Assembly: GCA_044892505.1 (NCBI GenBank)
Contig: CM097883.1
Coordinates: 378,262,001-378,326,000, forward strand
Source of the DNA: Schmidtea nova
Lineage: Eukaryota
Length of the DNA stretch: 64,000 bases
Direction of reading: 5' to 3'
The notes under the pieces were generated by a model. That model saw only the letters and a program-made list of their open reading frames with translations, had not been told where the DNA came from and made no database searches. Positions within the stretch are counted from its first letter, which is position 1. Each line of letters begins with the position of its first letter. Below are positions 2,490-58,132 of this stretch, one piece after another. The translations under genes were made by a program, and so were the position numbers.

Positions 2490-2495
2490 AATGCT

Positions 2496-2930
2496 CTATC
2501 GAAAATTATAACAAGGTTTACAAATTGGAGAATTTTGAAGTTTTTCTGTAAAAGGCGTTCGACCAACATTCAATTTGCGCCAATAATCACTGTCAGATTT
2601 CGATGAATTAAATTGTAGCTTTTCTTCAATTACTGAAGATCGCACTTTATCAGAAATGATTGAATCTCCCGTAGGCAACACATTATTTAAATCATTAATG
2701 AAAGAGCTCTCGATTTTATTGATTACATTCGCATTAGTTTCAGCATCACCAATCTTTGTTTTAGGAAATTTCAAATCCGTATTAGGATTTTCTTCATAAT
2801 AAGCAGATTTATCTAGGCTCTTTATAAAGGAAACTCTTAAGCTACTGGAAAATTCAGCATTTTCCCATAAACTATAATTTGAATCGCTATCATAATAAAA
2901 TTCGTGATCAGATTCCATTTCACCATTCAT
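2496..2930 (-). CDS. Unassigned 144-aa ORF, probably the 5' end of a captured host gene; same frame as 1932-2489, separated by one TAG
   Basis: ATG start, acidic/Ser-rich N-terminus. The 441-nt offset between 2930 and 2489 keeps the frame (CYNFR*SILSNPK). Confidence 0.45.
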   Translation of the reverse strand: MNGEMESDHEFYYDSDSNYSLWENAEFSSSLRVSFIKSLDKSAYYEENPNTDLKFPKTKIGDAETNANVINKIESSFINDLNNVLPTGDSIISDKVRSSVIEEKLQFNSSKSDSDYWRKLNVGRTPFTEKLQNSPICKPCYNFR

Positions 2931-3274
2931 ATTTAAATATAATGAACGTTTATACTAAATTTTCAACAAGTCTTTGTAGCGCTTTCGAAGAAATATATAT
3001 TTAAAAATTAAAGCACAAGTATTCCATAAATTCAATAAAAAACCCACAAAGCAGTTTTTTAAATTTCAAAACCACCCTCGAAAATCACAATTAAAAAAGC
3101 TCAGATAAACAACTTTTTAAAAAACTCCCCAGAAAAAATAAAATAGCGCAGTTAAACAACAACTCATTAAATCATATTTTTAATTATCGAATTCCAAAAC
3201 TTCCAATTGATTTTATCTATCTCTTTTAACCGCTCAGCGAAATTCGGTTCTCGCGTCTCTGTGCGCACCCCAAC

Positions 3275-3631
3275 TCAACGATAGATAACATCACCACCGC
3301 GCACACAGACGTTGTCGTTATCACTATCGAAATTCGCAGCAAGTATTAATTTTGTAAGGAAAACGTCATTCCACCAGCTGCTATCACTCTGCTCGAAATT
3401 GATTGGTTTATCATCATTTGTATTGGGTGTATTTATTTTATAAACACTATTCGGAATTTCAGAAAGGTTTCGATTTGCTAAGTTTAATGAACCAGACTTC
3501 TTTGCTTGCTTCAGTAAATTATCGAATGTTTTACTATTTTGCGATTCATTACTACCAATGTCAATGAATAGTGACTTGTCATTTGTTTGATTCAGTTTAT
3601 TTTTTGATCGGAATTCAAGAAATTTCGACAT
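3275..3631 (-). pseudogene. LRRC40: 5' fragment of leucine-rich repeat protein 40, truncated at the first LRR (~3335)
   Basis: LLKQAKKSGSLNLANRNLSEIPNSVYKIN...SWWNDVFLTKLILAAN matches the LRRC40 N-terminus [22 protein letters not shown]...WWEQTDLTKLIISNN, then switches to unrelated sequence. Confidence 0.8.
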
Positions 3632-5050: not shown

Positions 5051-6861
5051 ATGGATAAAAAAAGAAAAATTGATGATGAATCTAGAAATTTCCAAGAGAT
5101 CTGGAAAACTAAATACTCTTGTATTCTAGCAACAAAACCAAAAAATGCCGTTTGGTGTTTGGTATGTAAAGCTACGATTTCGGTACTAAAAGAATATAAT
5201 ATACGATGACATTATGAGACGCATCATAAAAGCCTGAATGCGCTTGCTCAAGATGAGCGAATTGAAAAACTGAATGAGCTTACAAATTCACTGTCGATGC
5301 AACAAAATATGTTCACCAGAATAAATGATGAGAATTTGGCTAGTGTTACAGTCGGATTTAAAATTTCTCACCGTATAGCTGCTTTGGGTAGACCATTTAA
5401 AGACGGCGAGTTTATCAAATGTTGCATTATTGATGCAGTTTCTACTATTCTTCCCGACAAAGTTCAGCTTTTTAAAAATATATCACTTTCAAGAAATACC
5501 ATAACAAGACGAATAGAACAAATTTCTGAAAATATTAATATACAACTTAAGGAGCGAATTCAAAAATTTCAATATTTTTCTATTGCTTTGGATGAGAGCA
5601 CAGATGTAGTAGATACATCGCAATTACTTATTTTTATAAGAGGTGTAGATTCCGATTTCAATGTTACAGAAGAGCTAGCGGCACTTTCTTCCTTATATGG
5701 ATCAACAACAGGACAAAATATATTTGATAGTATGGAAATGTGTTTTGATAAGCTGCAATTAAATTGGGATAAATTATTTAATGTCACTACAGATGGTGCG
5801 CGATGTATGACTGGAGATAATATTGGACTCAGAGGAAAAATTAATGAAAAAATGGTTTCCTTAGGGTTGAAAACCCCTTTATATATGCATTGTATTATAC
5901 ATCAATACAATTTATTGGCAAAAACCTTGAAGTTTGAAGATGTTTTGAAAACAGTAATTTCTACTGTTAATTTCATACGGAATAATAAACTTAACCATGG
6001 AGAATTTCGTAAATTTTTGGATGAAACTGATGCTGATTGGGATGATGTAATATATTTCGCTGAAGTTAAATGACTAAGTAAAGGTAAAGTTCTAACTAGG
6101 TTTTTTAACCTACGAAAAGAAATTATATCATTTTGTAATAAAAAAAAACATGTAATTCCTGAACTTGAAGATGAAGTTTGGTTGTGGAAACTTGCATTTC
6201 TAACGGATTTGGTTGATCAAATGAATAAATATATCAATAAAATGCAAGGAAATATGAAATTGGTCAGCGAACTTTATTCAAATGTACAGTGTTGCAACGA
6301 AATTAAAACTCCTTTATCGACAGGTATCTAAAAATAATTTCCAACATTTCAAATTATGTGAACATTTAAAAAAATCTGGTGAATTACAAACTAATACTCC
6401 AAATGAAATATTTTGTGATACAATAAAAATTTTTGATAAAAAATATGGAAGAAAGATTTTCGGATTTCGATAATATTTCATCTGAAATAACACTCTTTGA
6501 AAATTCTTTTACATATGACGTGGATGAAGCTGTTCCAGATTTGCAGCTTGAACTTTGTCAGTTGCAAAGTACCAACAACTTAAAAGTGTGGTTCATAGAA
6601 AAAACCTTACTGGAATTTTATAAAGGACTATCAAAGGAAGATTTTCCAAATCTAAGGATATTTGCATCCAGAATGTTCTCAAATTTTGGTAGCACATATA
6701 AAGTGGAACAAACATATTCAAAAATGAAGTATACAAAAATAATAATAGAAATAAATTATTAGATAGACATTTGCAGGACATTTTAAGAATTTCCACTTCC
6801 AAAATTGAACCAAAAATTACAGAATTGGCTTCATCACTTCAACATCATCCATCACATTGAT
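5051..6861 (+). pseudogene. hAT transposase pseudogene
   Basis: MDKKRKIDDESRNFQEIW, BED-like CLVC...HYETHH, FSIALDESTD, VTTDGA, HCIIHQ, C-terminal FGSTYKVEQTYS. In-frame stops (for example 6071-6073 at the conserved RW) and frameshifts. Confidence 0.9.
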
Positions 6862-14290: not shown

Positions 14291-15883
14291 TTAATTTTTA
14301 CCATGTGAAGAATGGTGTTGCTTTTGTGACACTAGAATTGCAATATTAGGATCAATATTTGATATGTTTATCCTTAATTCTGGTTCAACATCCAACCGAT
14401 TTCGATATTTATTCTTCATGTATAATAGCATCGAGAAAGCTCTTTCACATAAATACGTTGTACAAAATGGAAGTAAATATTTAATTGCTTTTTCAGCTAA
14501 TGTTGGATATACATTTTTAACTTTCAACCAAAACTCTTCAACAGTATGTTCATTAAAAACCAACCTGTAGGAGCTGTCGCATGATAATTCTGCAAGTTCA
14601 TCTTGCTCTGAAATTGTCAAATTTTGTACTTCGATATTTTTGCAACAAAATGGATCTCGAACCCATTCATGGTCTGATGTGGTAGAAGGAAAATAATTTC
14701 TAAAAGATTCTTTTAACATTTTTATATGTTCAATTAAAATCTGAATTTCTTCGACAGACAGTTTGTTATCAGAACTTTCTACAAATTCATGAAGTGTTGG
14801 AAAGGATTCAATAATTCCTTTTGTTAATCTGCTTATCCACAAATCCATTTTCTTCATTATTGCTTTTATTTTATCTTCTACTTTAAAAATATTTATTGAA
14901 GTACCTTGTAAACTTAAATTTAATTCATTTAGGTAAGAATGAATATCAGCCAAATAACCCACCTTAGCTAGCCAGGAAAAGTCAAAAAAACGATCTTTTA
15001 AATAGAAATTATCATTCTCCATCAAAAATAATCGTACTTCATCTCGCAGTTCAAAAATTCTATTTAATACCTTTCCACGAGACAACTAACGTACTTCTGC
15101 ATGAAGAAGAAGATGTTTATGCTGACTCCCCATTTCTTCGCATAAAACTTGAAAAAGACGAGAATTTAATGGACGCGCTTTAATAAAATTTACCACAGAT
15201 ACAATTTCATTTAAAGTAGTTTTTAAAATATCTGGCATTTTCTTTGCGACAAGTGCTTCGCGATGTATGCAACAATGTGTCCAAACTACATTGGGCGCTA
15301 CAGTTTTAACAAAATTCTTAAGACCCTTAATTGTTCCACTCATAGGTCGAGCACCGTCCGTGCTTATTCCAATACATTTTGACCACTCCATTTTATTGTT
15401 TGTTATAAAGTTGTTCAAGCAACGAAATATTTCAGCACCAGTTGTCCGTGTTGGAAGCAACTTGCAAAACAAAAAATCTTCATAAATCTTACCGCTAAAT
15501 TCATATCGAATGAATGAGAGCAAATTTGGGTTGCTCGCAATATCTGTAGTTTCATCCAGTTGCAATGAGTAAAATTGACTCTTCAAAACACGTTCAATCA
15601 ATTGGTCCTTAATATTTTGAGACTTCTCACTGATTCTATTTTTAACTGTGTCGTTTGAGAGCGAGATTAAGTTAAGGTCTTGGGCAGCTTTGCTTCCTAT
15701 CATTGTTGAGACTATTGCTTTAGCAGCTGGAAGAATTAAATTTTCAGCGATAGTGTGGGGTTTTCCAGATTTGGCTACTAGGAGAGACACTTGAAATGAT
15801 GCATGTACCGCTTGTTCATTATTACTTCCTGTGACGGTTTTTTTAATCAATTTTTGACTTGCTTGTAGTTCATGTAATTTCAT
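14291..15883 (-). pseudogene. Buster-type hAT transposase, 5' truncated, one in-frame stop
   Basis: Two in-frame ORFs (15086-15883, 14291-15085) separated by TAG at the conserved EVR(W)LSRG. Motifs KPHTIAENLILPAA, FYSLQLDETTD, ISTDGA, HCCIHREAL, PFCTTYLCERAFS. Confidence 0.92.
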
Positions 15884-23139: not shown

Positions 23140-23788
23140 TTACCATTCTGTCATAATATTTTAGAAAATGGAACAATCTCAGGAAAAGCTTTGCAGGAGA
23201 ATGAGTAGATTTAAGACTCGAAACGAAGATCTTTCGAAGAAAAATCAGGCGCTAACGTTACGTCTGAATAAATTTATTCAACAAAATAATTGTTATTAAG
23301 GTTTGGCACCGACAAGATGAAGATTCCCCATGAGAATTTTAGGGTCGAGGTTGTGATTTTTAACAATAATAACGCTACAAATAGAAAAAAAGTTCTTATT
23401 ATTTAAATATAGTTTTAAATAAATATTGTAAATAAATAATAACTACTGTTGGGCCCGCCAAATAGGCTAAAGCAACAACATTAAGACAAAAAGTTAAAAT
23501 AATAATAAAATAATAAACACAGAAATAGCAATAAAGGAAAATTAAAAATAGAAATAAAATAGTAAATAACATTTAATAAATTTCCAGTAAAAGGAAATTT
23601 TAAAAATAAAACGGTAACAAGCAGTAAAAGGGGGCCTGAAATAAGAAAATTAAGAATTAAATAAATTAATAGTACAAGTAATTGATTAATTACTTGAAAA
23701 ACCAGGACCACCCAGCGAGAAACCGGAAAAGGAAATAAAATAATATTTAGATTTAAATAAAATAGTAAAAACACTTTGATGGACGGTC

Positions 23789-23831
23789 TGATCCTGATTG
23801 GTCAATCTGACCAGTCGGATCAGTATAAATA
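23789..23831 (+). promoter_or_regulatory. CCAAT-containing palindrome plus TATA box of copy 1 (same in copy 2 at 31917-31959)
   Basis: TGATCCTGATTGGTCAATCTGACCAGTCGGATCA followed directly by GTATAAATA; nearly identical in both otherwise diverged copies. Confidence 0.65.
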
Positions 23832-24826
23832 CCGATCCAAAAATCACAACTTTACACTTTTTTTTCCATTTTTGCGAAACACTTGTTAACTGTTTAAAAC
23901 GCACGTTCTCAACTGTTACAGAAACCTCTTTCTAAAGCGTAAACCTAGGCGGAACGTATTTTTCGAAATATTCATTGAAAACTAGTGGAAGATATCATCT
24001 GAGGAGTAAATTTTTACTTTGTTTTATGTTGTAACTTTATATTGTTGTACCATGATTGTCATCTATAAATTATAATTTTATATCTAAATTTTTAATTTTT
24101 ATTATTCATATTTATGCATATAGTTATGCTTCCTAGGCTGCTCACGCGACAAGGGAGCCCGAGTCGTCGTTGTGGGGCTTCACGGTCTCACATGGCGGTT
24201 CCACCTTTTTATGAAGTCCTGAAACCATTTTATAATTATATTATTTTATCGACAAGTTTGCGTTCAATAATTTTCTGAATTTCGGTTGCACAGAGGACGT
24301 GGCGCGGAGAGCGGTAGGAAATGCTTAGAAAGTTGCCAGAAAGTGTGAGGCACCCGACAGACGTTATGTACTGACACCCAGGGGAATGGTAAAATCGAGT
24401 GATTTTTGATCTCAAGAGATCGAGTAGGGTGAGTAAAAACACAAAGTATCGAACGAAATCGATCCAACCGGAAATTTGCATCGGAGATCAAAGTACGGGA
24501 TCGACAGTTAAATATATCGAGACGGATAAAATTTGCATTAAACATCAGATGACATAATTAAAATCGTGTGAGATGGAAAATCTAAATAACATTATAAATA
24601 ACTTTATGCCGATCGCTGTACATAGCGCGGTAATCCAAATCAATATTATCCTGATCGCCGTACATGGCACAGGGAGAACTAAAATACATTATTCCGACCG
24701 TGGTATATCGCGGCGCTGACAAATTGATCTAATAATATTTTCGTTTTTCCTTATTTACGATCAGTTAACTGAAATAATTCTTGTATTGAATAAAACCTGT
24801 TTTACAATCCTTTAATGAAATAATAG

Positions 24827-25610
24827 ATGTCGGCAGCCGATCTAATGGAAAAATTGACCCAGATCCGGAATTCAGAAAAGGAGAGCATGGAAAGTAGATG
24901 GGCTACCCAACTCAAGGAGTTGCCCCCGCCGATTTTGCGTACCATTAACGCACAGGTATATAAGTGGCGGCGCAGATTTAATCGAATATGCCCGTTTTCC
25001 ATCTGGGTTCAAGGAAAAGATCGAGTCAACGCAGAGAGAACTCGAAAAGATGTGGCAAATCAGGAGAGCCCAGGATAAGGAGTTGGGCCTCCTCAAATAA
25101 CAATTGGCCAAGGCTGAAGCGCAAATCGCCTATTTACGTAAAAGCTGGTTTGCTCCGGCTCGGATGAAGGAGCAGATCGGGAAGACGGAGTGCGCCCAAC
25201 GGACAGCGGATGACTACAGAATGGAATGGGAAGCTACGAAAATCGAGCTTCGTAAGTGCCTGCATTCGGTAACAGCTTCCTACATCGAACGGGAGCTAAA
25301 GGACCAAATCCGACCGGTAACCTACCAGGAATGGACGGCGGAGAAAAAATTGGGAACTTCAATAGGCACGGACGTCGACGGTCTCATCGAAACCAGCAAC
25401 GAACCAACTCCATCAATCAACCTTACAACTCAAATCGTCAGTACCCATCAGAAACGCAAACGCATAGGACAGAAAAGGCGCCGACAAAGAAAGCTGTTCG
25501 CCCAAAAGCTGCAGAATCAAATCGATGCTCTGCACAAATTATCTGAGGAGGAATTACTAAACGAAGTATTTCCCCCAGAAGGAATTTTTAGCAGTGTAAT
25601 AGACAAATAA
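24827..25610 (+). pseudogene. Copy 1 fused ORF1-N/ORF2 (coiled-coil plus Arg-rich protein), with one frameshift (~25010) and one stop (25098-25100)
   Basis: The LPPPILRTINAQVYKWRRRFNRICPFSIW part matches copy 2 ORF1. The ESTQRELEKMW...AKAEAQIAYLRKSWFAPARMKEQ...KRKRIGQKRRRQRKLF part matches copy 2 ORF2. Confidence 0.8.
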
Positions 25611-26559
25611 ATGAGAGTTTTGAATTATTATCGTCCTTGTTATGTTCTCAATTTAGTTAAATAATAAATCTAAAGTAAATAATCATAAAGGCACCAAATT
25701 AGAAAACTGCATGAAAATTTTATTATAATAAAGATCAATTCTCCAGATTTTAGTGTGAATTACATAGCATACCATTAAAGCGTAAGTCCTTCTAACGGCA
25801 GCAATGAACCCGTAAACATAAATGGGGAGTAGTACTAGCGATAGTGCTCACCTGCCCATCATTGTTTAACCACCCTGCGCATTTCCAACTTGATTATCCA
25901 GGGAAATAATCAAGGGCGCTTGAGTGTATAGTTGCACATTTTATGCATGATCATGGATGAGGGATCCCTAGTCATTGTTAGAACATTTTTCATCTAACCC
26001 CTCCATGAACCCAGCACTACTATTAATAGATAAATAGTAATAATAGTAAATAATAACTAATAGATTAATATTAATAGTAATAAATATAATAATAAAGTTC
26101 ATTTCTGAACTTAGTAGATGATCATCACCACATTATTGCAAAATTTGATGAGGGTTGTACTAAGAAGAACTACGGGTGTTTAGCATACTATATATACTAA
26201 TTACAAATTAGTGACGAAAAACGATCAAACAATTTTAGAAGAAAACGAGCAAATATTATAAGATTATAGAGAGAAAACAATTCTATTAAGCATTTATTAC
26301 TGCTACCATGTTTGAAACATTTCTTAAACTAACTTTGGTAATCCTTTTATTTCTTTTTCATAATTTACCCTGAGTATTAGTATTATCTTTAATTATTATT
26401 TTACTCTTCAAATTTAAATAATTAGCAAGAGGAATTGTGGTATGAATAAGTATCAACCAAATTATGGGTTGATACTATCGCGTTAATTTTAAGCGTATCC
26501 CACAAATTTATTTATACCTTTTACCAGTCGGAGCTGTTGAGATTATTAGATTCAGCTTT

Positions 26560-27450
26560 CGCTCTTAAAAAAATCTAAGGAAAGTTTGAACAGCCGATAT
26601 CTTGCTTAGTAAAATTAAAGCAGCAGTTGTGCTATTTTTATATTTTTGGGAAACTATATTGTAAATCCAATTGTACTACTGAATAAATATTTAGCTTAAA
26701 CTAAAATTGTTTTCATTTTATATACATGCAACACATTATCATATTTATAGAGATTATAGTTTGGAGTCCAATAATTAATTTTTAACGCTAATGAAATATC
26801 ACTGAAATCTAGTAGAAAAGATTTGGTGTTTAAAAATGTTATGGCCATTTAATCACCGACAGTTCAAAGCACTTCTTGTAGAAATAAATACTGAATATAA
26901 TAACTTGTAGTACTGTAAAATTCGTTGGAAAGTTTTGACTAGATTCATGTTACTTTTAAAAATCAAAATATTCCAAATTGATAAAGGAAAGTCTACCGAC
27001 TTTATGGAAGATTTTCAGTACCTACGTGCTTTGACATTTTTAACGGATGTTACACATCTCAGATTTAGCAAACAACATATTAAACTTTCGGGAAAACGTA
27101 AATTGTTATATAAACAGCTAGAGCAATATAATTTTTGCCAAAGAAATGTTTCCCTTGCATGATATTGATTCCGGCCATAATTATACCTGCCATATTATTC
27201 GAATTCAAGAATATTTTGAGATTTTAGCCGTGAACAAAACTTGCTTAAGACATTTACGAACTCCTATAAATGAAGACGATCCATTTCAATTGAGATCGAA
27301 ATCGAAATCGAAATATCAGTAAGGCGATCAACTATATTTTTAAAGATGTATCAAGGATGAGCAGTTTCTCACCTTACATAGAAAGGCCGCGCTTTGTTCA
27401 ATCATTTACTAAACAACTTACATTTGCGAGAAAGCGTTCTACTTAATAAA
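26560..27450 (+). pseudogene. Highly degraded hAT transposase (central part)
   Basis: LNHRQFKALLVEINTEYNNL*YCKIRW and YLRALTFLTDVT are recognisable SPIN/GTF2IRD2-type motifs. Confidence 0.65.
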
Positions 27451-29329
27451 ACGTAACAGTCTCAATACAGAAATCGCTTGAATAATGATAACCCTAGCGC
27501 TGTATTGATGGAAGCAACCACAAAATTGAACCTAACATCGAAATGATTACTACCAGCATGCAGTATCAGAAATCTCACTAGAGTTGATACTAGGTTCCAT
27601 TGTAGTGTCCAAGTAGTGTAAGTAGGTAGTAACAGTTTATTTAAAATGTATATAATCACAGCTGTTTCCTGTGTCGTTCTCAGATCAACGTTTGACTACC
27701 CTTGTAGGTAGCCCTCAAATTTTATTTTAAAAATATTTTCTACTCACGAAGAGTCAGATCCTGTTCTCTTGGACCAGTCCGGCCACAGTGGCGCAGATTA
27801 TTTTCCTCCTGTGTTTTAATTTTTCTGCCTTCTAGTCACGATCCTGAAATCAACGACTTAATTCGATCAGGGGAATAAAGTTTATTCGGATTTGTTTTGG
27901 GACATCAGGGATTTTTGACTCTGTTGGTAGGATGTTTAGATTGTATAGATGTAACCTGTTGAGTGTATTATACTGTTGTATTATGGTTTGTGTAATTGTT
28001 GTTTCATGTTTGGGTATCTGTTTGATCAGTAGATCAGCAGGAGACAATGGTACCTCTGTATCGTATGTATATCGGGACATCGGAGATATCTAGGATATCA
28101 AAGACATCAGGGGATTTGGGATTTGGATGGAAGGTTGTTTGAATTTGTATTGGGATACACAAGTCTTGTATGTATACCGGGGACATCGGAGTTATTTTTC
28201 TATTGTTGGGTTAGTACTAGGTATGTCTCCAGAATCAGATCAAGTACTGTTGGATCTGGTGTGACAACATAATATCCTGGACAGAGGTATTTGTGCGAAT
28301 TTCGTGCGTTAATTAATATTTCTCTCATCTCTGTCAGGAATATTTAGTGTTTCATGATTTTTTTGACTCTTTAGGCATATAAACGGGTACCAGAAGCGAG
28401 GTGTTGGAATGATGCATCTGTATTGTCATCTTGCCGTAGCCCAAGTCTCAATTTAATATTTTCAATTTAGTATAAGGGTGTAAGTATATCATTTTTGGAT
28501 AGGGTTCTACATTGGTGGTAGTATTATAAAGGTTTTTTTCGTGGCTCATCTTCTTTTATTTTAATTTATATTTTATATTCATCATTAAGTTTTACTATTT
28601 CTTCATATTTTCATGTTCTTATCTCATCAAATTCAATAATATCATTTCTGTATAAGATTGGGAACTACGAGAGTATGTTTCCACTAATTACCTGCATTAT
28701 GTCTAGTTTGTTGGGATATTTGTTATTTTTTCAGGTTTATTAAAAATTCATGTTATTGATAGATGGTGGCTATATCTATTTTTAAGTGGATTATCTGTGT
28801 CCAAGTTAATTCAGTGGTAGTAAGAGGGACCAAAAAATTGGAAAGTGGTGTATTGAGTATTTTATTGTTTCAATATACATCTACGGAGTCTTTGTCGACA
28901 TTGCCAATGCTGTCATCATTACTGTCATCAAAACAGTCTTTACATGAGCTGTTGTTGTCATCTTCTTTGTTATTGTTTTCATTGTTGTTGTCATCATCTG
29001 AGCTGTTATATCGATTGTCTACAACATTTTTTATAAATTTATTAAATTATTCGATAACAATGACGGCAATATCTTCTTTTAGATTTTTTTATCTGCTCAG
29101 TATAAATTTGTGTTATAAGTGAAACGTATGCAAGAATTTGGGTGGAATTTCACTGAGTAGTCTATTGCTGCCATAGATTTTCCTTGTTTGCAGTTTTTAA
29201 TGAATCAATACCCATCTACTGAGCCTACATCAACATTATAAACGCCGCTGTTTAATCAAAAGTTTTTCCTAATAAGTAGCGAGAGTGACCTTTCTGACCG
29301 GTTTCGAGTATTTGCATTTTACCGAGCCG

Positions 29330-30117
29330 CCATGCCATAAAGTAAGGCGTTTTCCAATCGATTTTTGGTACATCTCGCTAGCTGTTATATTAAATTCTCA
29401 CAAAGATTTAAAGATTTTAAAAGAATTGAGAAATTATTCAAAATTGTGAATTATTATGACTCATTTGATATGCAGGGTTTCGATAATAATCTTCTGAATT
29501 GGATGGAATCAGAAAATTTAGAAATGCAAATTATTGATCTGCAATCTAATCTCATTTGGGTAAAATTTGTAAATATGAGGAAACATATCGAAAAATTTGA
29601 ATGTTTCCTATTATCACATGATGGAATCAGAATGCCGCATTGAAAACTCAATTCTAGAAGTGTGGATTAGTATGCCATATGCCTTTGGTTCTGTTAAGAA
29701 ATTAGCAATCTCATTGTTAACCATTTTCTCTTCCACTTACTCTTGTGAAAGTCTTTTCTGTATTAAATCATGTACATTCAAAAATGAGGAACAAGTTGAC
29801 AGAAGAAGATTCGGCAGCATTCATTAGCTTGCAATCGACAACATACCAGCTTGATATAAAAGATCTTGCAGATAATATGAAACAAAAACTTCTAATAAAA
29901 AATAACATTAAACTTATTATAACATTAATTTTTATATTTTAATTTTGTAGTGTTTCTTAATATTCATTAAATATAATTACATGAATTTTAATAATGCAAT
30001 ATGACAATATGTTTTTTATATATAATAAATATGGGACATAGGTACTGGCACGGTAAGAATTAAAAAAAAATTTTATCCAAATTTGGAACAGCGAACAAAT
30101 CTTATTTGCCATCCCTA
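29330..30117 (+). mobile_element. hAT 3' remnant (dimerisation domain plus right TIR)
   Basis: VKKLAISLLTIFSSTYSCESLFS...MRNKLTE; ends TTATTTGCCATCCCTA. Confidence 0.75.
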
Positions 30118-30289
30118 TTCTATCAGATGAAATTTTGTTTAATGATTAGTTTTCTTTAAGCGAATAATCTCAGATGAGGATGAATACGAGCGCGCAATGA
30201 ACGAGACTACGAAGTAACATTATGTCAATTCATTTTGGGAAAATGTGTAATGTGTGATATAATTCAGATAAAATACACTACTATAATTT

Positions 30290-30720
30290 GACTATCAATA
30301 ATATAACAACCTTGCCATTGGTCAAGCCACTGTTCCCTAACATCAACGTATGGAATGAACTGATCATGAGGGTGTGGCCTAACCTTAGATAGAAATATGG
30401 GCTGGTCGATTGATGGGCCCCAAACGAACAGCAATCTACTTAGGCTACTTTCATCAGTAAAGCTCATGGGCCGGATTGATTTCAAAAGGTATGGTGGATT
30501 GTTGGCCGTCAACATAACCTTGACGTTGTTATGGCTCACATTAACAACTCAACATACAAAACATTAGTTTAACCATCCTGTTGCCCGCCACAATGTAACG
30601 CTGGAAATGCAACAAATGGGTGGATGTCCGAAAACAGTGAGCGTCGAAAAATTCGAAACTATGACTGAGCGAACATCTCCTGGGTTCAAGAGCTACTGAT
30701 GGAAGGCTACGCGCCCAATT
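30290..30720 (+). pseudogene. Degraded ORF of unknown function inside LTR-like element X
   Basis: LPLVKPLFP...VWWIVGRQHNLDVVMAHINNSTYKTL. Homologous halves recur at 46778-46960 and 43694-43930. Confidence 0.55.
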
Positions 30721-30981
30721 TGCCCCTTAACAGAAATTATTGTTATTTATGTTCGATTATACGTAGGTGAAACTCATTGCTGGAGTTCTGCGTTCAATAT
30801 TTATATTATATTCATTTCAATTGCCATTAACTACTTTGATTATAATACTTGATAACAAAGAAAAATCAATTTACATGTGAGAAAAGTATAATTTAATACA
30901 TTCAATAAAATTACAAATAAACAATGAATTTACATGAAGAAAATAATAAAACTAAATCACAATGTTACGAGTCAAGTATTG

Positions 30982-31502
30982 TTAAGTCAATGGATTCCAT
31001 AGGGGATTTTCAAATCTGCCCAGTACACGTGCTTCCTGCCTCCGTTTTCGCCGTGTTCTGACTCCTTTGCTAGGCTTTCAGCGTTTCGGGTTTTGGAATG
31101 ACAGGCGGTTCCTCTCCTGCCCTTACCGGAAATAATTCCAGTGCTGGAAAGGCCATTTTGGGCAGGATGGCCAAGATTATGCCGCTCTCTGTCAGCAGCT
31201 TCGCTATTGTTGCATCCCTTTCTCAGGCCATCATATTACAGGCCCTTAACTGTATGGCATCTTCGGCGACCTGCAGCCATAATAGTTGATTTTGTTATAT
31301 GAGCCTATTCACATTTTCTTTGCTCGTCCATGTCGCCTCAATTACGCGACCTGAATTTTTCCATCCTGATGGTCATTATTTTCAATGCCTCTGCATTGAC
31401 CTACTTTTCCGCCTCCAGATTTGCGAGACGGTTATTGACGCGCCGGTTGTGTCGTGCGGTTTAGGCGGCTCTTTGTAATAATTCGTCTATTTTCTGTTCC
31501 AT
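30982..31502 (-). pseudogene. Degraded coiled-coil ORF ending in an Arg-rich motif (element X)
   Basis: MEQKIDELLQRAA*TARHNRRVNNRLANLEAEK...GVRTRRKRRQEARVLGRFENPLWNPLT*. TTTCAG lies 2 nt before the ATG. Several stops and frameshifts. Confidence 0.6.
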
Positions 31503-32967
31503 TGCTGAAATTATCGAAAAACATTTAAAACATATCTATCCTAACAATTTATCAGACTACGACATTCAATTGTTGGGCCCACCAAATGGTCTAAAAAGAC
31601 AAAAATAATGTAATAATTTAAACAAAAAATACAAATAATAAATACAAAAAAACATTGGAAAAACCTAAATTAAAAATCAAAATAAAATAATAAATAATAA
31701 TAACTAAATTTCCAGCAAAGGAAAAAAAATCAAATTGACACGGGAACGAGCAGCATCGGGGTCTGAAATAAGAAAATTACAAATAAAATCAAATAAGAGT
31801 ACAATTAATTAGTTAATTACTTGAAAAAATCAGGACCACCCAGCGAGAAACCTGAACCGGAAATTTAAAATGGTTTATATTAAAATAAAATAACAAAATT
31901 ACTTTGATGGACGGCCTGATCCTGATTGGTCAATCTGACCAATTGGATCAGTATAAATACCGATCCAAAAATCATGAAAGGAGACATAAAAATTTTGATT
32001 ACCGAACTGATCTATAACAATCGATTCAGTCACATCAACTTTGTTACGATAAATTTTCGAAATAATTTTTGGGAACGCATCAAACTTGGATCTTAGAGAG
32101 TAATTTTGTTTTTATTGTTATTAAAATAATTTTTATTACATGTTTCTCATGATTCCCATTTGATTTTGTTTTAATATAGTTTATTATGATTAATGAATTG
32201 GATTATTCTATTATTTTATATTATAATAAATACACTTCCTCAGTAGCTCACGCTGCGAGGGAGTAAGCCGTAAGTGTGGGATTTCACCTTTCCACAAGAT
32301 GGTGAGCGAAGTTTATATTGACAGTTTTATTTTATTTAATTGAGTCATATCAGAGGTTTACCTTAAAGTAGAGTTGTGCATGGGGCCAGGGTTGTGCTTG
32401 CAAACAGGGTCTAGTGTTGGTTAGGTAGCGTTCGATCAAACAGGAGATGTCCAAGAATAATTAAAATATCATTGATTATATGACTTAACAAATCAACTAA
32501 ATCGGTTTCACCGTATGTACGCTATGTCGAATCCACACAACTGCAGCTGATCTAGACAAATAGATGCATCCGGACACACCGAGGAGATTCCGACATTTTA
32601 ATGAAATTTTTGACTAGGGTATAAATAGTAACATAATCGAATTTAAATCACAGATTGGATAAATAAAACAGTAACCTGATCGCTGTAAATAGCGCAGGCA
32701 ATAATATTTGGATTTCTTATAAACGTATCCCGATCGCTGTATATAGCGACGGTGTTAAGCGAATAGGTTTAGGAAATTTTTCTCATTCCTTCTCTTCATT
32801 TTTTTTTGGGGTTTAAATGATCAACCTCCTCACTACAAGACCAATGAATCCTTGAATTAAAATTTATCAATATATAATTTTTTTTTGAGGGGAGCATACT
32901 TCAGCGGATTTCACTGCGATTAGCGAATTCGTCACATAAATTTTTATTGGAATCATTCTTATCTCAG

Positions 32968-33459
32968 ATGAAACCAACAATAGTGGAAGAATTTCTGGCA
33001 ATCCAACGACATGCGGCCCGGGCTGATGACCAGCCGATCCGGATGCAGCAGAAGATATTGAAATCGCTTCCACAAGAACTCCTGAGAACGCTAAATGCGT
33101 TGATGTACAAGTGGAGACGAGAACTGGGGAAAAAATGTCCGTTTTCCATTTGGACCGGTGGATCGGACACTATCATATATCGAGGAGGCCCCGGATGGGA
33201 AATTCCGGACCCCGAAACGACAGCTCAGTTCATCATAGTTTTGACGGACATCGCAGCCAATCCAACGACAGTAATCCATTGGGGATATATCTCACCCCGC
33301 ATGCTGCTTCAATTTGGTTTGATCCCGAACCACCTACCGAAAACGGGCCAAGGACGCCCCAAACTGAACTGCTCAATGGCTTGCATCCGACAAGATCCTG
33401 TCAATCACGGGTTGCACATTACCCCCGTTCACGGCCTCCAAGCGAAGCGTTTTCGCTAA
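32968..33459 (+). CDS. Copy 2 ORF1, 163 aa from the first ATG, unknown function
   Basis: Open, GC-rich frame. ATG directly follows TTCTTATCTCAG (splice-acceptor-like). The N-terminal part is conserved in copy 1. Confidence 0.75.
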   Translation: MKPTIVEEFLAIQRHAARADDQPIRMQQKILKSLPQELLRTLNALMYKWRRELGKKCPFSIWTGGSDTIIYRGGPGWEIPDPETTAQFIIVLTDIAANPTTVIHWGYISPRMLLQFGLIPNHLPKTGQGRPKLNCSMACIRQDPVNHGLHITPVHGLQAKRFR

Positions 33460-33648
33460 CAACGTTATTCACAATACTATGAATTAATATGTTTCATCAA
33501 TTAAATTGTGTTGACCTGTCTTTTTGTTTGTTATTAGTTGAATTTCGATCCATTTATGGATTTAATTACCCAAATTTTTCCACTCGACGGATAGTATTAG
33601 CCGTTGGTAGTGTAATTTCAGTATCATAAAATAGGTTTATTATTTAGT

Positions 33649-34239
33649 ATGACGGAAACCAGCCAACAGCGGGAATTGGATAAGGCGTGGAGAATCCGCG
33701 GAGCATTAGAAAAGGAGTTAAATCAAGAAAAAGCATTACGGGCTAAGGCAGAAGCTCAGATTCAGTATTTACGAACCAGCTGGTTCGCCCCAGCCCGTAT
33801 GAAGGAACAAATGAGTCGAACGGAAAGGGCTCAAAAGACAGCTGACGATTATCGCACCCAATGGGAAGCAACAAAAATTGAGTTGCGCCGATGTCTCCAT
33901 TCGGTGACGACTTCTTTCATCGAGTTCGAATTGAGATCACAGATCCGACCCATCACCTACCAGAAATGGGTAGGAGAACAGAAAGTGGCCTGCTCGGTCA
34001 GTACCGACACCGATGGTCTCGAGGTAACAACAGTACAAAGTCCGATGGAATCCACCGTTGCACCAAATCCCGTCGGAAAAACGAACAAGAGAAAGCAAAT
34101 CGGTTCCAAGCGCCGTCGCCAAAGGAAGCTGTTCTCTCAGCAGCTGCAGGCACAAGTGACCACTATGGCAGAAATGTCGGAAGCCGAGTGGTTATCAGAG
34201 ATATTCCCTCCCGAAGAAATTTTCAAGGAGTTTTTGTAG
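33649..34239 (+). CDS. Copy 2 ORF2, 196 aa, coiled-coil protein with a C-terminal basic KRKQIGSKRRRQRKLF motif
   Basis: Intact ORF; homologous to 25104-25610 with predominantly synonymous differences. Confidence 0.85.
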   Translation: MTETSQQRELDKAWRIRGALEKELNQEKALRAKAEAQIQYLRTSWFAPARMKEQMSRTERAQKTADDYRTQWEATKIELRRCLHSVTTSFIEFELRSQIRPITYQKWVGEQKVACSVSTDTDGLEVTTVQSPMESTVAPNPVGKTNKRKQIGSKRRRQRKLFSQQLQAQVTTMAEMSEAEWLSEIFPPEEIFKEFL

Positions 34240-34369
34240 CAGATAAAATCATAACATGATGTCAGCTTTTGGTGTTGATTAAATTTTTGCTTGTTTTGTT
34301 TTTTTTTTGTTATTTCCTATGTATTTCCTTCGGTTACACAGTTCATAATAATTAAATTTAAATTACATG

Positions 34370-36713
34370 TGTTGGGTTATTATTCTGTAAGATCGGTTTA
34401 CTGACCTGACTCCTCGTGCTCTTTAATTATCGAATTCAATGAACCCAACACAGAACAATCTTTTTATTCACGCTCAACACAAATTACAATTTTTGTTACA
34501 CACACGTTTGATTAATTTACGCTTTATTTCGGATTCGGATTTGACTCTTTAATTCACAGGATGCTTTCTTACTTTGTCTGTTTAATCTCTTCAGGATCTT
34601 TCTCTATTCGTTTTCAAAGTCTTTGTAATAATCTCTTTTTAACTGTCCACTCGTCGGCCCCGTGCTCTGTTTTGCGTTGCCTTTTATAGTTCTAGCACAT
34701 AGCAATTAAGTTTTATCGATACCTAAAAGTTAACCAATATCGGGTTTAATTGTTTGGCTAACAAATTATTTTAATTATCCTCGGATGGATTTTTCCTAAT
34801 TGCCCCGACTTTGATCTCTCGGGTCTCTTTGCGCTCGGGCTTCCCTCATCGCTCGGGTTTCCCATTGCCTCGGGCTTCCCATTGTCTCGGGTTTCCCATT
34901 GAGCGATTAATTAATTTTAATTAGTTTGTTTTTATTAAATAACTTTCTCTGGGGACCCCTTACTAACTTTCTATTATTAGTTTTGGGTTCGTCTTTTGAT
35001 TCGGCATTCAACCATACCCATTTCCCCCAATGAATATTAATTTAAAATTTTTGATAACTTTTAATTAATTTTTGAACTTTTATTTATTTTACTTTTGTGA
35101 TTTTTATATAAACCCCAACATATCTCACCCCTTTATTTAAGATTCGTCCTCGAATCCGTATTTTGATTTGTTATTTTATTAAAATGGTAGAGTCTACTCA
35201 ATACTATAAATGTGCATAATTATAATTATTAGTAAAAGTTTGGACTATAAATTAGATGGTAGAGTACTCTCAATACCAACTATAATAGAATACTCAAATA
35301 TACTAATATTGATTTCATATCATAATAGAGACACTAATGAATAATAATAAATGACGATATTACTATTATTATATTTATACCTACCCATACTAATATTAAT
35401 AACGGCCTAATAGTGCTACAAGAAATAACAAATTATTGATTTTACTAATAAAGTTTTAGAACAATTATGATGATCATAACAGCAATACTGCTAGTAATAA
35501 TAATAATTTTACTTAAAATTCTATAATAACAATGATAATTCTTAATAAAGCTTTTGGTTTTAATAATCCTAACAACAACATTAACAATAATAATGATAAT
35601 AATAGTAATAATAATAATAATAAAAGGATTACATTTATTTTTAACAATATTTTAATAATACTTTTATTAATATTCTCTTTTTTTTTTCCAACTACAACAA
35701 TAATTATTATTTCAATAATTATAATAATAAAAATAATAATAATAGTTAATTAATAAATCAGCTTTTCTGATCATATTTATTGAATATCATTATAACCATC
35801 ATGATAGATGCAGAAAATCTAGTTTAAATAAATTAATGTTTATTCCTAAAATTGGCATTGCCGATAATTATAATTTTGAAAATTTAATCGGTGTTTGCCG
35901 ATTATTGATAAGACTGTTATTTTGAAAATCGGCCTTGCCGATTATCTCTATTTATGCCTTTGTCGGCATAACTCAATTAAATTTCAGATGGCAATTTTGC
36001 CAGGGATGGAATTAGCCAATCACATGGTAGTTATTCGTGATTGGCCACCTCCTTCTCTTCTTAAGGGCTCGTTATTTTTTTTATTTCCTTTTATTCAAAT
36101 GGAATTAAAATATCGATCGATGTATTAAATATTAAATATTAAATATCAATATCAATAATTTAAAATTGTTAATATTTTAGTAAAACCTTTTGTTGTCTAA
36201 ACCAACGAAGCACATCTCCACTCCGACCAAGAAAACACAATCAAGCCATCACACAACGACCAAACAACCAACTCCTTGTGCCCCCCAGCTAATCGATGAC
36301 CTCAAATCAAATTCCAACTTGCGATCCCGTCAACAACTACTGCCAACAAAGCCTCCCACACTACTTACCGGTCACGAAACGGCCCTAAATCACCACTCGG
36401 CCTCCAATGTTTGGAAATTTGGTATCTAATTAAAAATTTCTAAAAAATTTTTTTTTTTTGCTTTCCTTATACTACGAATAATAATAATATCAGCCATAAT
36501 NNNNNNNNNNNNNNNNNNNNNNNNNNNNNNNNNNNNNNNNNNNNNNNNNNNNNNNNNNNNNNNNNNNNNNNNNNNNNNNNNNNNNNNNNNNNNNNNNNNN
36601 NNNNNNNNNNNNNNNNNNNNNNNNNNNNNNNNNNNNNNNNNNNNNNNNNNNNTAACCATAATAATAATGACCACAATCATAACAATAATAATAACCGTAA
36701 TAATAATATTAAC

Positions 36714-36744
<31 letters not shown>

Positions 36745-37774
36745 GTAATGATAATAATAACTGCTATTACCCCCAATAATAACAATCTTAATAATACTAT
36801 CAATAATCACCACAAGGATGACTATAGATCAAAAATTTTCATACAAACAACATACATTTGATAAAGGCTATGCAGAAATATTGTGTTATTATTTATACAA
36901 AAACCATTGATGATAAAAAGATCAAATGTGAAAAAAAGATAATTTTGATTCATAATATTAATAGTAAATAATAAATAATACACCACAATGATACATTATC
37001 ATCCTGACTATACCATTATCCTGATTATAATATTATTTTGACAGTAATGATTATTAATACTAACAATAATACTTATAGTTGAAAGAAATAATAATGATAA
37101 TAACAATAATAACAATATTCACAACAACNNNNNNNNNNNNNNNNNNNNNNNNNNNNNNNNNNNNNNNNNNNNNNNNNNNNNNNNNNNNNNNNNNNNNNNN
37201 NNNNNNNNNNNNNNNNNNNNNNNNNNNNNNNNNNNNNNNNNNNNNNNNNNNNNNNNNNNNNNNNNNNNNNNNNNNNNNNNNNNNNNNNNNNNNNNNNNNN
37301 NNNNNNNNNNNNNNNNNNNNNNNNNNNNNNNNNNNNNNNNNNNNNNNNNNNNNNNNNNNNNNNNNNNNNNNNNNNNNNNNNNNNNNNNNNNNNNNNNNNN
37401 ACAATAATGATAACAACAATAACAATAACAATAACAGTAACAATAATAACAATAATAATAATAATAATAACAATAATATTAATAAGGTTTTTACTAATAA
37501 TACTGGTGATGCTAGTAATGTTAATGCTCTCATATTGTATGCGGGTTTCCCATTGAGCGATTAATTAATTTTAATTAGTTTGTTTTTATTAAATAACTTT
37601 CTCTGGGGACCCCTTACTAACTTTCTATTATTAGTTTTGGGTTCGTCTTTTGATTCGGCATTCAACCATACCCATTTCCCCCAATGAATATTAATTTTAA
37701 ATTTTTGATAACTTTTAATTAATTTTTGAACTTTTATTTATTTTACTTTTGTGATTTTTATATTAACCCCAACA
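34370..37774 (-). mobile_element. Non-autonomous LTR retroelement nested in copy 2
   Basis: TSD CATG on both sides. Complete 3' LTR at 34370-35120 (TGTTGGGG...CCCAACA on minus; TATAAAA near 34685; AATAAA near 34465) preceded by PPT AAAGGGGTGAGATA. Partial near-identical 5' LTR at 37541-37774. The interior is (AAT)n-rich with gaps and no visible gag/pol. Confidence 0.8.
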
Positions 37775-38123
37775 CATGTCACACAACGAAAGGAGTAGCG
37801 TTAAAAATTTAAATATTATCGAATTCGTAGTTTCGTTTTGTTTTTTGATAAATACATAAAATCACACGTACACCGAATAACAACAATTGCGTAAGTCCTT
37901 CTACGGCCGCGTGAACCCGTAAACATAAAGGGGGAGTAGTCCTAGCAATAGTGCTCACCTGCCCCTCATTGTTTAACCACCCTGCGCATCACCAACTTGG
38001 TAATCGGGGGAAATAATCAAGGGCGCTCGAGTGTAACTTACGACTATTTGTGCATGATCATGGATGGGAGATCCCTAGCAATCATTGGAATTTTTACTAC
38101 CCCGTCCATGAACCCAGCACAAT

Positions 38124-50438: not shown

Positions 50439-52270
50439 ATGGATAAATCTTTGAGTGGTTACAAGAGAAAAGTCAACAATAATGAAGATACTGATGCTGA
50501 TACTAGTGGGAATAAAATCAAAAAAGAGCAAGAAAGTAAAGCTCCCAAGAAAAGACAATACAGTTCATCCTATTTATCATTAGGAGTCACTAGTGCTAAT
50601 ATAGATGGCTTGGAAAAACCAATGTGTTTGTTGTGTTCGAAAGTTTTGGCTTCAGATAGTATGAGACCAGTCAAATTAAAACGGCACCATGAATATCTAC
50701 ATTCTGAATACGTTGATAAGCCCATAGTTTTTTCAAAGAAAATTGGATGAGCTTAATAATCAAAAGCAAACGTTCAAAAAATACTTCTGTTTCACCAAAT
50801 GCATTATTGGCTTCGTACCATGTCTCTTACCGAATCGCAAAATGTAAGAAACCACATACAATAGGAGAAACTCTAATTTTACCAGCAGCTATTGATATGG
50901 TTCGAATAATGTTCGGCGAATCATATGCAAAACAGTTGCGATAAATTCCGCTTGCTGATAATACAGTCGGAAGAAGAATCAAGGATATATCTGAAGATAT
51001 TTGCGATCAATTTATGCATTCTCGGCTGCGTACTTCAAAATTCGCCATACAAGTAGATGAGGCAACTGATATAGCTAAAGATGACCATTTAATTGCATAT
51101 GTTCGATATGTTGTGGAAAATAATACATTAGAAGATATATTATTTTGCAAACCCATTTTTGGAAAGACCACATCCATTGAAATTTTTAATATAATGGATA
51201 GTTTTTTTGAAGAAAACGACATAACGTGAAATAATTGCATTGAACTGTGTACTGATGGAGCTCACTCAATGTCCGGACACAAAGCCGGTCTTCAAGCATT
51301 AGTTAAAAAAAGCACCACATGCTATCTGGAGCAGATATAGTGTCAAAAAATATGAGTGAGGAACTTAACAACATTTTTACAAAAATTATAAACTACATTA
51401 AGAACAGTCCTTTGAGATCTAGACTGTTTGCAAAGTTGTGTGTATATATGGAAGCTAATCTACCTCACTTCTGTATTATTGTGAAGTTCGCAGGCTATCT
51501 CGTGCAAAAGTGATTCAAAGGGTATTTGAACTCAAAGAAGAAATAGCAACCTTTCTCGAAGAAAATCAACATGAAGAGGCACATTAGTGGACGAACGATA
51601 ATTTCCTTGTTAAACTTGCCTCTTTGGTTGAAATTTTTGGAAAATTGAGCAGTTTGAATAAATCAATGCAGGGATCACAAATGCATCGACTTGTTCAAAA
51701 AGACGAAGTAAAAGCTTTCATTAAAAAGTTGAAGTTATGGAAGTCAAATTTACAAAAGAATAAGTTGGACATGTTTTCCCTGTCAAAATATTTCTGGACC
51801 ACAGCCAATATTAAAACTAGCAAGAATCTTTTTATTGAACACTTGGATAGTTTAGTACTGCATTTTTCAAATTATTTTAAAGACCTTGATTTCTCAAAGT
51901 TTTTGTGGGTACAGAATCCATTTATCGACAATGAAGATGACGAATTTGAGCTGACAACCATTAAACATGAAAAACTGATAGAATTATCACGCGAGAGCCT
52001 ACTAAAACAAAAGTTTCAAAATGAAACCTTAATTTAATTTTGGATGAATCTTGGCGGAGAGTATGAATCTTTGTATTGCAAAGCAATGCAAGTGCTTCCA
52101 CCGTTTGTAACGTCGTATTTATGCTAAACGGGCTTTTCGGCACTGATTGCAATGAAAACCAAATATCGAGCCAGGTTAGTAGTCGAAAGAGATACGAGTG
52201 GCACTCTCCACATTGCCCCCAAGATTTGATAAACTTCGTGCCAATAAACATCAACAACCCTCGCATTAAA
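50439..52270 (+). pseudogene. Buster/ZBED8-like hAT transposase pseudogene
   Basis: KPMCLLCSKVLASDSMRPVKLKRHH (BED finger), KPHTIGETLILPAA, FAIQVDEATD; many stops and frameshifts. Confidence 0.92.
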
Positions 52271-56920: not shown

Positions 56921-58132
56921 TTAATATGAAAGATTGTGAGCAATCGATCGTAAATGATCATTTATATCAATATTTTCATCCCAACGATTGACAACCCGCA
57001 ACAATCTTGCTTCAAGATCACGATATTTTTTCTTCTTTTGTGGAGGTTGCTGTCCACTGAGATATTGTTCTATTTTTAGTTCATTTAAGCTTTGTTCTTT
57101 TTTTAATAGTTCGATGAATTTCCAAATTCCTGGATGAAGAGCGTTCAGCAATGTCTGAAATCCATTGTGCCATCCTTCGAGATTGTTGTTCGTCTTGGGT
57201 AAATTCTGCAATACCGCTTCATAGCAATTCCATAATTGGTGATTAAATTTCGGTGGGCGGCGTCCTTTGAGACGATTAGGTCGCCCAATCCATGTGTCCT
57301 CAAAATAATCAACCACAGGTAGCATATCGTCAGTAAATATATTACTTTCACCTAAAACTTCAAATGTGTTTAAAATAACATTTGTTGGAACAAATGCCAT
57401 TGCAGCAAGCATTCGAAATTTTAATGCGTATTCTGGATCATTTTCATACTGCTGTTTTAGTCCAGATGATTGTATTTTACGCCAAATACATTGATTAAAA
57501 TGAAAAAAACAACCACAATGCCTGGATAGTGGAAATTCTCGTTGAAATGCGTTGATCATTGCGACTTCAAAATCCGTCATTATAGTTTGAGGATTGCAAT
57601 GACCAGTTAATTCTTTTACTGCTTTCAAAAAACGTACATATGTTTCCTCTCGTTTATTTGGGAGGAGACCAAATATTAATGGAATTGATCTATTATCTTC
57701 CAATCCATGAATAGTATATAATTTTTCAAATAATGGAGGAACGGTTTTAAAAGTACCATCACCGTGCCAATGAAGAGAACGCCGTAAAATATCCAAATTT
57801 GCTTGTGTTGAAAAAATTAATATGAGGTCGTCATCCTCAGCTCCAGAATCATATAAAAGAAATTTTTCATTTTTGTTTGTTTTTGTATATTCATCACTGA
57901 ATACAATATCACGCCTTGATCTGGGAATCGGTTGGCCTTTATTTTTCTTCGCTCTAACATTCCGTATAGTTCTCGCAAGATTCGGCACGCTGGGCAATTT
58001 GGCGGCAACACTTCGGCTTACTAATGCTGAAGATGAAGCTACAATATATTGTGGTGCATCACGAGTAATGAGGGCTTCCTGGCGAATGCAGCTGATGACA
58101 TTTTTAGCTTGAACGCTTGCTGCGTCTATCAT
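56921..58132 (-). CDS. MULE (Mutator-like) transposase, 403-aa open frame
   Basis: HWHGDGTFKT, IMTDFE, GCFFHFNQCIW, TNNNLEGWH. The frame extends upstream through RCSARV...HNH (end of a FLYWCH finger) to ~58210. Confidence 0.9.
   Translation of the reverse strand: MIDAASVQAKNVISCIRQEALITRDAPQYIVASSSALVSRSVAAKLPSVPNLARTIRNVRAKKNKGQPIPRSRRDIVFSDEYTKTNKNEKFLLYDSGAEDDDLILIFSTQANLDILRRSLHWHGDGTFKTVPPLFEKLYTIHGLEDNRSIPLIFGLLPNKREETYVRFLKAVKELTGHCNPQTIMTDFEVAMINAFQREFPLSRHCGCFFHFNQCIWRKIQSSGLKQQYENDPEYALKFRMLAAMAFVPTNVILNTFEVLGESNIFTDDMLPVVDYFEDTWIGRPNRLKGRRPPKFNHQLWNCYEAVLQNLPKTNNNLEGWHNGFQTLLNALHPGIWKFIELLKKEQSLNELKIEQYLSGQQPPQKKKKYRDLEARLLRVVNRWDENIDINDHLRSIAHNLSY

Follow-up and report, generated by a model that had tools for sequence, protein, structure and literature searches.

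We analyzed a 64,000-nucleotide stretch of Schmidtea nova DNA (assembly GCA_044892505.1, contig CM097883.1, positions 378,262,001 to 378,326,000 of the forward strand; hereafter the window, numbered from its first letter) that contains two related elements, here referred to as copy A and copy B. Both are solo long terminal repeats (LTRs) of a giant, recently active Ty3/gypsy retrotransposon, and both carry two protein genes or the remnants of them, named ORF1 and ORF2, inside the LTR itself. Each copy is flanked by a 4-bp target site duplication (TSD). The features of the two copies are listed below; lengths of proteins are in amino acids (aa), and PBS denotes a primer-binding site.

23447..26016, plus strand: solo LTR copy A, carrying the A-type cassette and lacking about 456 bp; TSD CTAC on both sides (23443-23446 and 26017-26020)
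23788..23831, plus strand: CCAAT-containing palindrome and TATAAATA of copy A, with TATAAATA at 23824
24609..24715, plus strand: three bulged hairpins, each with a GUANAU loop, 5' of ORF1 of copy A
24827..25022, plus strand: 5' remnant of ORF1 of copy A, cut by the deletion
25023..25610, plus strand: remnant of ORF2 of copy A, start lost, in-frame stop at 25098
25780..26016, plus strand: conserved 3' end of the LTR, copy A; it adjoins the PBS in 5' LTRs elsewhere
31571..38119, plus strand: solo LTR copy B, with a B-type cassette; TSD CAAT; 3.1 kb net of a nested insertion
31916..31959, plus strand: CCAAT palindrome and TATAAATA of copy B, with TATAAATA at 31952 and a second TATAAATA at 32620
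32676..32752, plus strand: two bulged hairpins with a GUANAU loop, copy B
32968..33459, plus strand: ORF1 of copy B, 163 aa, open, an orphan protein; CAG immediately 5' of the ATG
33649..34239, plus strand: ORF2 of copy B, 196 aa, open; predicted long helices, variable linker, conserved basic motif and short C-terminal helix
34370..37774, plus strand: member of a second gypsy family, internally deleted and nested inside copy B; TSD CATG; it lies outside the copies' own family
37889..38119, plus strand: conserved 3' end of the LTR, copy B

The original prediction had described a family of elements of 2.6-3.1 kb with the termini TGTTGGG...CCCAGCA at 23447-26016 and 31571-38119, with the TSDs CTAC and CAAT and with a CCAAT palindrome plus TATA in both copies, and all of these are confirmed in the letters, as is a 23-codon block in which 21 residues are identical and 13 of these codons differ synonymously. 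Copy B measures 6,549 bp as it stands, and the size given for the family is recovered once the nested insertion is subtracted. This insertion of 3,405 bp opens with a 751-bp LTR (34370-35120), whose last 249 bp recur at the far end (97.6%), so the statement that there are no internal direct repeats was wrong for copy B. The same order of ORF1 and ORF2 had been claimed for both copies; it holds for copy B, in which both genes are open, but copy A does not have two intact ORFs. Both of its genes are broken, with a gap of about 456 bp at 25022/25023 (relative to its nearest relative) through which ORF1 loses its end and ORF2 its start, and with the stop at 25098. At the DNA level, likeness between the two copies is confined to bases 1-400 (79%) and the last 240 bases (85%). 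A scan of the window for a PBS found none beside copy A or copy B, and we classified the copies as solo LTRs because each has its own TSD and the window is without a PBS. Solo LTRs form by recombination between the two LTRs of an element, and the TSD is retained. A 4-bp TSD recurred in 10 of 10 full copies (L001-L010), a count that takes in copy A itself and two copies lying in (AT)n tracts, where the TSD is uninformative. Contigs from four runs of unrecorded kind span the flank too, and none of the 15 joints shown, out of 50, has GT..AG ends, while one joint of 449 bp fits the size and place of the deletion in copy A.

A DNA search of the S. nova genome gave 3,519 candidates, 40 of which were scored. 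Among the full copies, the flank 3' of one could be read as a PBS. The exact LTR end followed by the PBS is present at 181 places genome-wide (0 in the reversed control), and the PBS is complementary to host tRNA-Pro(TGG) genes. The junction of a polypurine tract (PPT) with the LTR of one subtype was found at 104 sites. From 32 candidate elements, picked for paired and intact ends, 28 were resolved. Their LTRs are 3.04-3.25 kb in length with 0-12 mismatches per pair, 27 of the 28 have a 4-bp TSD, one element has an LTR in common with the preceding element, and ORF1 and ORF2 are full length in both LTRs of 23 of the 28. The B-type LTR is found on full elements; the A-type is found before a PBS and a RING gene, with the body interrupted.

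One full element (G000:C1:26132750-26162370) is 29,621 bp long with an internal region of 23.4 kb, and possesses a single frame of 5,665 codons, stop to stop, encoding gag, fusion glycoprotein, protease (PR), reverse transcriptase (RT), RNase H (RH), integrase (IN) and ankyrin. Pfam reports for this frame zf-CCHC twice, Monjiviricetes fusion (1.7e-70), RVP, RVT_1, RNase H, integrase and ankyrin, with the fusion glycoprotein between gag and PR and the ankyrin 3' of IN. The order PR-RT-RH-IN is that of Ty3/gypsy (Metaviridae). On the 3' side of the large frame are genes of 458 aa (RING-zfTRAF-MATH, the TRAF gene; MATH_2 6.5e-21), 353 aa and 189 aa, and between the PBS and gag is a gene of 153 aa (L076:5228-5686) with a C-terminal C3HC4 RING (zf-C3HC4_3), present in 23 of 28 elements and in a sister family. 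The original prediction had offered giant solo LTRs as one of its two readings, and had suggested a search for paired LTRs; such pairs exist, and with the PBS, the PPT and gag-pol they bear this reading out. Its remark that the elements lack gag and pol is right for the two copies in the window and wrong for their family, which carries gag-pol.

Unusual arrangements of these elements were also seen. The tandem array at C1:590.9 Mb was considered as an LTR-body-LTR junction and rejected, its LTRs being without a PPT; in this region (G000:C1:590.86-590.96 Mb, L066-L070) four PBS sites lie about 33 kb apart, two compared units are 99.9% alike, and the units are duplications of 5' LTR plus body without a 3' LTR. 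Another locus (L154, G000:C1:171.93 Mb) has an LTR with a PPT before it and a PBS after it, that is, two bodies on one LTR. A tandem tRNA-Pro array with a period of 308 bp is located at G000:C1:459.61-459.66 Mb (L303), and its pattern has 1,106 matches genome-wide.

We then focused on selection in the two LTR genes. The ratio of nonsynonymous to synonymous change (dN/dS), taken pairwise and binned by synonymous distance, declines as pairs grow more distant: over 78 distinct open copies of ORF2 it goes from 0.38 down to 0.06, and over 41 of ORF1 from 0.57 down to 0.12. Many of the between-cassette pairs are saturated. Shared and private variants were compared in five sets of 16-24 copies, which were chosen on the basis of the PBS, of the DNA of the whole copy or of the other gene, and never on that of the tested ORF; broken copies were kept, and copies 99% alike were collapsed. 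Shared variants have dN/dS of 0.13, 0.17, 0.27, 0.21 and 0.32 in the five sets, against 0.32, 0.49, 0.65, 0.78 and 0.79 for private variants (Fisher p from 0.006 to 1e-5). Stops are almost all private (22 vs 1 shared), and the private variants also include frameshifts. The other sense frames and the antisense frame have dN/dS of about 1 or above. Since dN/dS is low in shared variants and higher, with stops, in private ones, selection acts in the replicating element and the solo copies decay. The purifying selection claimed from the two window copies therefore holds over many copies by both the pairwise and the shared/private measure, and is not near 1 for shared variants. The shared/private test gave no sign of host co-option of the LTR genes. 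We regard as practically certain the identity of the LTRs, the structure of the parent element, its recent activity, the selection on both genes in the replicating lineage and their decay after insertion.

Within the family, the LTR genes can be divided into three deeply diverged types, namely A, B and e26. When a full element of B-type is set against one of e26-type, ORF1 is 45% and ORF2 59% identical in amino acids, and 74% and 71% of the four-fold sites differ; in the bodies of the same elements, eight internal regions are 86-99% identical in amino acids and only 9-25% of four-fold sites differ. Between an A-type solo LTR and e26, four-fold differences are 69% (ORF1) and 62% (ORF2). Each comparison is of one pair. 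The divergence of the LTR genes is far above that of the body, so the cassettes are far older than the body that carries them, and near-identical bodies are found under two of the three cassettes. In 25 e26-type elements we saw pervasive recombination. Diverged cassettes on one body may reflect balancing selection, or else bodies may have been captured repeatedly. A GC-rich non-coding block (L076:2375-2465, LTR bases about 630-715) is also kept between cassettes and has no match in Rfam.

Profiles of ORF1 and ORF2 were used to search the genome, and remote copies with the same gene order were found elsewhere. An older, decayed family with TG...CA ends has a TSD in 4 of the 6 copies whose two ends were located, two of these four being duplicates. 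A young sister family has LTRs of 3.23 kb (4 mismatches in one pair) and the same PBS. Inside its LTR are homologues of ORF1 (210 aa; hhalign 93%, E 2.5e-7) and of ORF2 (187-193 aa; E 1e-25), the latter with the basic motif kept. Its RT is 93% and its gag 62% identical to those of the present family. A remoter ORF2 homologue (31%) before the same PBS, at L271:574-1008, likely marks a fourth family with LTR genes. A comparison of the bodies of the two sister families (L076-L078 against L283-L290, the latter at G000:C1:148.65 Mb and 114.19 Mb) gave 98% identity in the region of the fusion glycoprotein, with 19-20% of four-fold sites different, beside the values for RT and gag above and 53% for TRAF; the envelope module looks to have been recently exchanged. 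The second gypsy family, with the 751-bp LTR (window 34370-37774; L218-L226), also begins with TGTTGGG and has gag, fusion glycoprotein and pol in order; its RT is about 50% identical to that of the 30-kb element, and no ORF1 or ORF2 homologue was present in the four regions of it examined.

Neither protein could be assigned by its relatives. ORF1 and ORF2 have no usable match in Pfam, a word-index protein search, PDB sequences or the ESM Atlas (best Atlas value 0.88), and the possibility that they match an ordinary gag or env fragment or a host gene was likewise not borne out, no known family or homologue being found. A hidden Markov model search with the ORF1 alignment gave one match (E 6e-4), to a repeat-rich protein of 1,163 aa, which was judged to be due to chance. 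The predicted fold of ORF1 is of low confidence (pLDDT 43). That of ORF2 consists of long helices (pLDDT 78, pTM 0.27) and has no Foldseek match at E<=0.001 among viral structures. At an overall identity of 26-28% between families, the features of ORF2 that persist are a helical N-terminal part, a WF motif, a linker that varies and the basic motif. The predicted helices and the conserved basic motif make ORF2 a likely candidate for a regulator acting on the RNA of the element.

As for expression signals, the CCAAT palindrome and TATAAATA are at the same place (LTR base about 340-400) in all three cassettes, and the pair is present in sister-family LTRs too; it is likely the main promoter. Both genes are on the gag strand, ORF1 starting at about LTR base 1,390 and ORF2 at about 2,040, which places them 1.0-2.3 kb 3' of the conserved TATA. 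YAG, which resembles a splice acceptor, is found 0-3 nt 5' of the ATG in 44 of 45 ORF1 and 67 of 68 ORF2 sequences, compared with 220 of 1,543 LTR ATGs, in copies that are related and so amount to few independent cases. It is also found 5' of the RING, TRAF and 353-aa genes, and not clearly so for the 189-aa gene. In the sister family, each of 11 leaders has both a pyrimidine tract and an AG no more than about 15 nt from the ORF1 ATG. A(A/T)TAAA, which resembles a poly(A) signal, is present no more than 60 nt past the stop in 27 of 28 ORF2 and 19 of 26 ORF1 sequences, vs 310 of 1,120 background windows. Moreover, in 71 of the 73 LTR sequences scanned ORF1 is preceded by bulged hairpins with a GUANAU loop, two to four in number; among 21 distinct units both sides are changed in 4 of 7 pairs, and G-U forms favour the sense strand.

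Taken together, we think it quite probable that copies A and B derive, as solo LTRs, from a young Burro-like Ty3/gypsy element of 30 kb, whose two selected LTR genes are likely expressed from spliced RNAs begun at the LTR promoter, with ORF2 likely acting in the nucleus to regulate the RNA of the element. Transcription would begin near LTR base 400, placing both genes in the R and U5 regions of the LTR; a short leader would be spliced, or a host spliced leader trans-spliced, to acceptors just 5' of ORF1, ORF2 and the RING, TRAF and 353-aa genes, and ORF1 and ORF2 would each end at a poly(A) signal of their own. We rate this arrangement as reasonably probable. The full-length RNA would have to get past the splice and poly(A) signals of the accessory genes, and ORF2, as an oligomerising helical protein with a basic motif, may help it past them in the manner of Tat/Rev-type regulators, a step that we put forward tentatively. 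In the most far-reaching form, the LTR would be a swappable two-gene R/U5 cassette combining a Tat/Rev-like regulator with its own RNA target, with ancient specificity alleles on one recombining body and with solo LTRs (about 900 by counts of exact ends) as potentially expressed copies of the regulator genes; as a whole we hold this to be unlikely.

Several observations weigh against this scheme. The start site, the splicing and the poly(A) sites are read from motifs only, and the basic motif of ORF2, a protein that has no significant match in sequence or fold searches, may be just a nuclear localisation signal. Donor-like sites about 115-150 nt past the TATA are weak and differ between cassettes, and a second TATAAATA lies closer to ORF1 in both window copies and in several sister LTRs. 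The hairpin cells are 98% paired, a figure inflated by gathering the units with a pattern that favours pairing. None of 11 sister-family leaders has the hairpins, though the basic motif of ORF2 is kept, which argues against one fixed pair of ORF2 and hairpin. A linkage test of the boundary between U3 and R on 25 elements showed no single break.

This last result leaves room for the genes to lie in a 2.8-kb U3, as nef and sag do; the genomic RNA would then start within the final 240 bp, which are conserved, and an accessory promoter would be formed by the TATA at base 375. Those 240 bp are the best-conserved stretch between cassettes and have the size usual for R plus U5, and 2.7 kb is very long for a strong-stop DNA. 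However, the CCAAT and TATA are kept in all cassettes and in the sister family, conservation falls directly after them, and rice Retrosat2 offers a precedent for a long predicted R downstream of a 5' TATA (PMC3485330). We consider the U3 placement possible but doubtful. The function of ORF2 could also differ from regulation of RNA. It might be a basic leucine zipper (bZIP)-like DNA-binding or dominant-negative regulator of LTR transcription, given the leucine-bearing helix that follows the basic motif and given that 2 of 20 ORF2 members touch Pfam bZIP_1 (best E 0.045); that match is below any cut-off, the helix past the motif is short and there is no fold match, and this reading seems improbable.

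Another possibility is that ORF1 and ORF2, standing in the same solo LTRs, are effectors directed at the host (silencing, immunity or cell death) and not regulators of the element's own RNA. The other accessory genes of the element (TRAF and RING) resemble host ubiquitin and signalling proteins, the LTR genes are much more diverged than the body between cassettes, as alleles long kept in conflict would be, and Burro1 is described as silenced in planarians by Piwi-interacting RNAs (piRNAs) (PMC8532177). Neither protein, however, shows a host-like domain, and shared variants are without an excess of amino-acid change; we regard host-directed effectors as somewhat unlikely. Finally, the second reading of the original prediction was that the copies are self-contained, non-autonomous or Ginger-like units moved in trans by an integrase, and a related one is that the genes are host-co-opted. 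Most copies do stand alone with a TSD: the exact LTR 3' end occurs 1,251 times, 181 of them with the exact PBS, and roughly 900 copies are solo or without an exact PBS (a rough subtraction of exact matches only). But identical termini flank gag-pol in pairs, which refutes self-contained units; the window copies show neither of the Ginger hallmarks (long terminal inverted repeats and an integrase-like transposase of their own), and the private variants are near neutral, with stops and frameshifts, as in passively decaying solo LTRs. We therefore hold these last readings to be very improbable.

Among known systems, the closest layout is that of Burro / GYPSM1, giant gypsy elements of planarians of about 30 kb with an internal region of up to 25 kb and accessory ORFs, as outlined in the review PMC6431247. 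The elements share the length of about 30 kb, a single polyprotein (some 5,000 aa or longer) with CCHC gag, in-frame fusion glycoprotein, PR, RT-RH-IN and ankyrin, and MATH/TRAF. In contrast, TRAF is here a separate gene 3' of pol, whereas the review's account places it inside ORF1 in Burro1 and upstream in a Dugesia tigrina element, and its text on Burro mentions no gene inside the LTR (PMC6431247). The Burro domains BIR and BCL2 have no Pfam match in the element here. The parent element is a new Burro-like giant by the described layout, a likeness that the original prediction did not bring up, and is not assigned to a named Burro family. The layout also makes a planarian host likely. Rice Retrosat2/RIRE3 and Ogre likewise have LTRs over 3 kb and extra orphan ORFs, with the TATA of Retrosat2 near the 5' end, but in the descriptions given there the extra ORF is outside the LTR, upstream of gag-pol (PMC3485330, PMC6431247). 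The crapaud element of Podospora has diverged LTR variants within one family, and the abstract describing it does not mention LTR genes (PMC10787394). The original prediction compared the LTR genes with HIV/SIV nef and MMTV sag, and the likeness of a protein gene inside an LTR stands, while the position does not: nef and sag are each one gene, situated in U3, the 5' third of a vertebrate retroviral LTR (PMC2664473), and here there are two genes, both 3' of the conserved TATA. No sequence likeness of ORF1 or ORF2 to nef or sag was found.

The Tat/Rev/Rex/HBZ-type regulators of complex retroviruses are small, spliced, basic-motif proteins. ORF2 may resemble them as a small protein with a basic motif, likely spliced, with repeated bulged hairpins near the likely 5' end of the transcript, but it has no homology to them and the hairpins are missing in the sister family. 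Our literature search, made on result lists and abstracts, found no report of genes in a planarian gypsy LTR, of two selected genes in a gypsy LTR or of a Rev-like gypsy protein, though the original Burro description and Repbase may already draw the ORFs; the consulted portions of PMC11410931, PMC13524379, PMC8532177 and bioRxiv 10.64898/2025.12.11.693146 do not describe LTR genes. The Burro description in the review includes neither genes 3' of the LTR promoter nor a single body with deeply diverged alleles of LTR genes.

If the LTR is indeed a swappable Tat/Rev-like cassette, a control system of the complex-retrovirus kind would be present in an invertebrate Ty3/gypsy element. The position of the LTR genes and their diverged alleles make it possible to ask directly whether gypsy elements of invertebrates came to have regulatory accessory proteins like those of complex retroviruses. 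Solo LTRs are usually counted as non-coding debris. Here each of them carries a likely promoter and two genes, and LTR recombination would multiply, not remove, coding units. This concerns a host group in which the related Burro1 is reported as abundant and piRNA-controlled (PMC8532177).

Outside the two copies, three ORF pieces at 1932-3631 of the window (minus strand) have no Pfam match and may be exons of a host gene. The window also contains DNA-transposon genes at 56921-58132 (minus strand), 58816-59733 (plus strand), 5297-6762, 14291-15883 and 50439-52037, with Pfam matches to MULE (1.5e-19) and DDE_1 (2e-21); some of the DNA-transposon pieces, whose Pfam matches are weak, look hAT-like.

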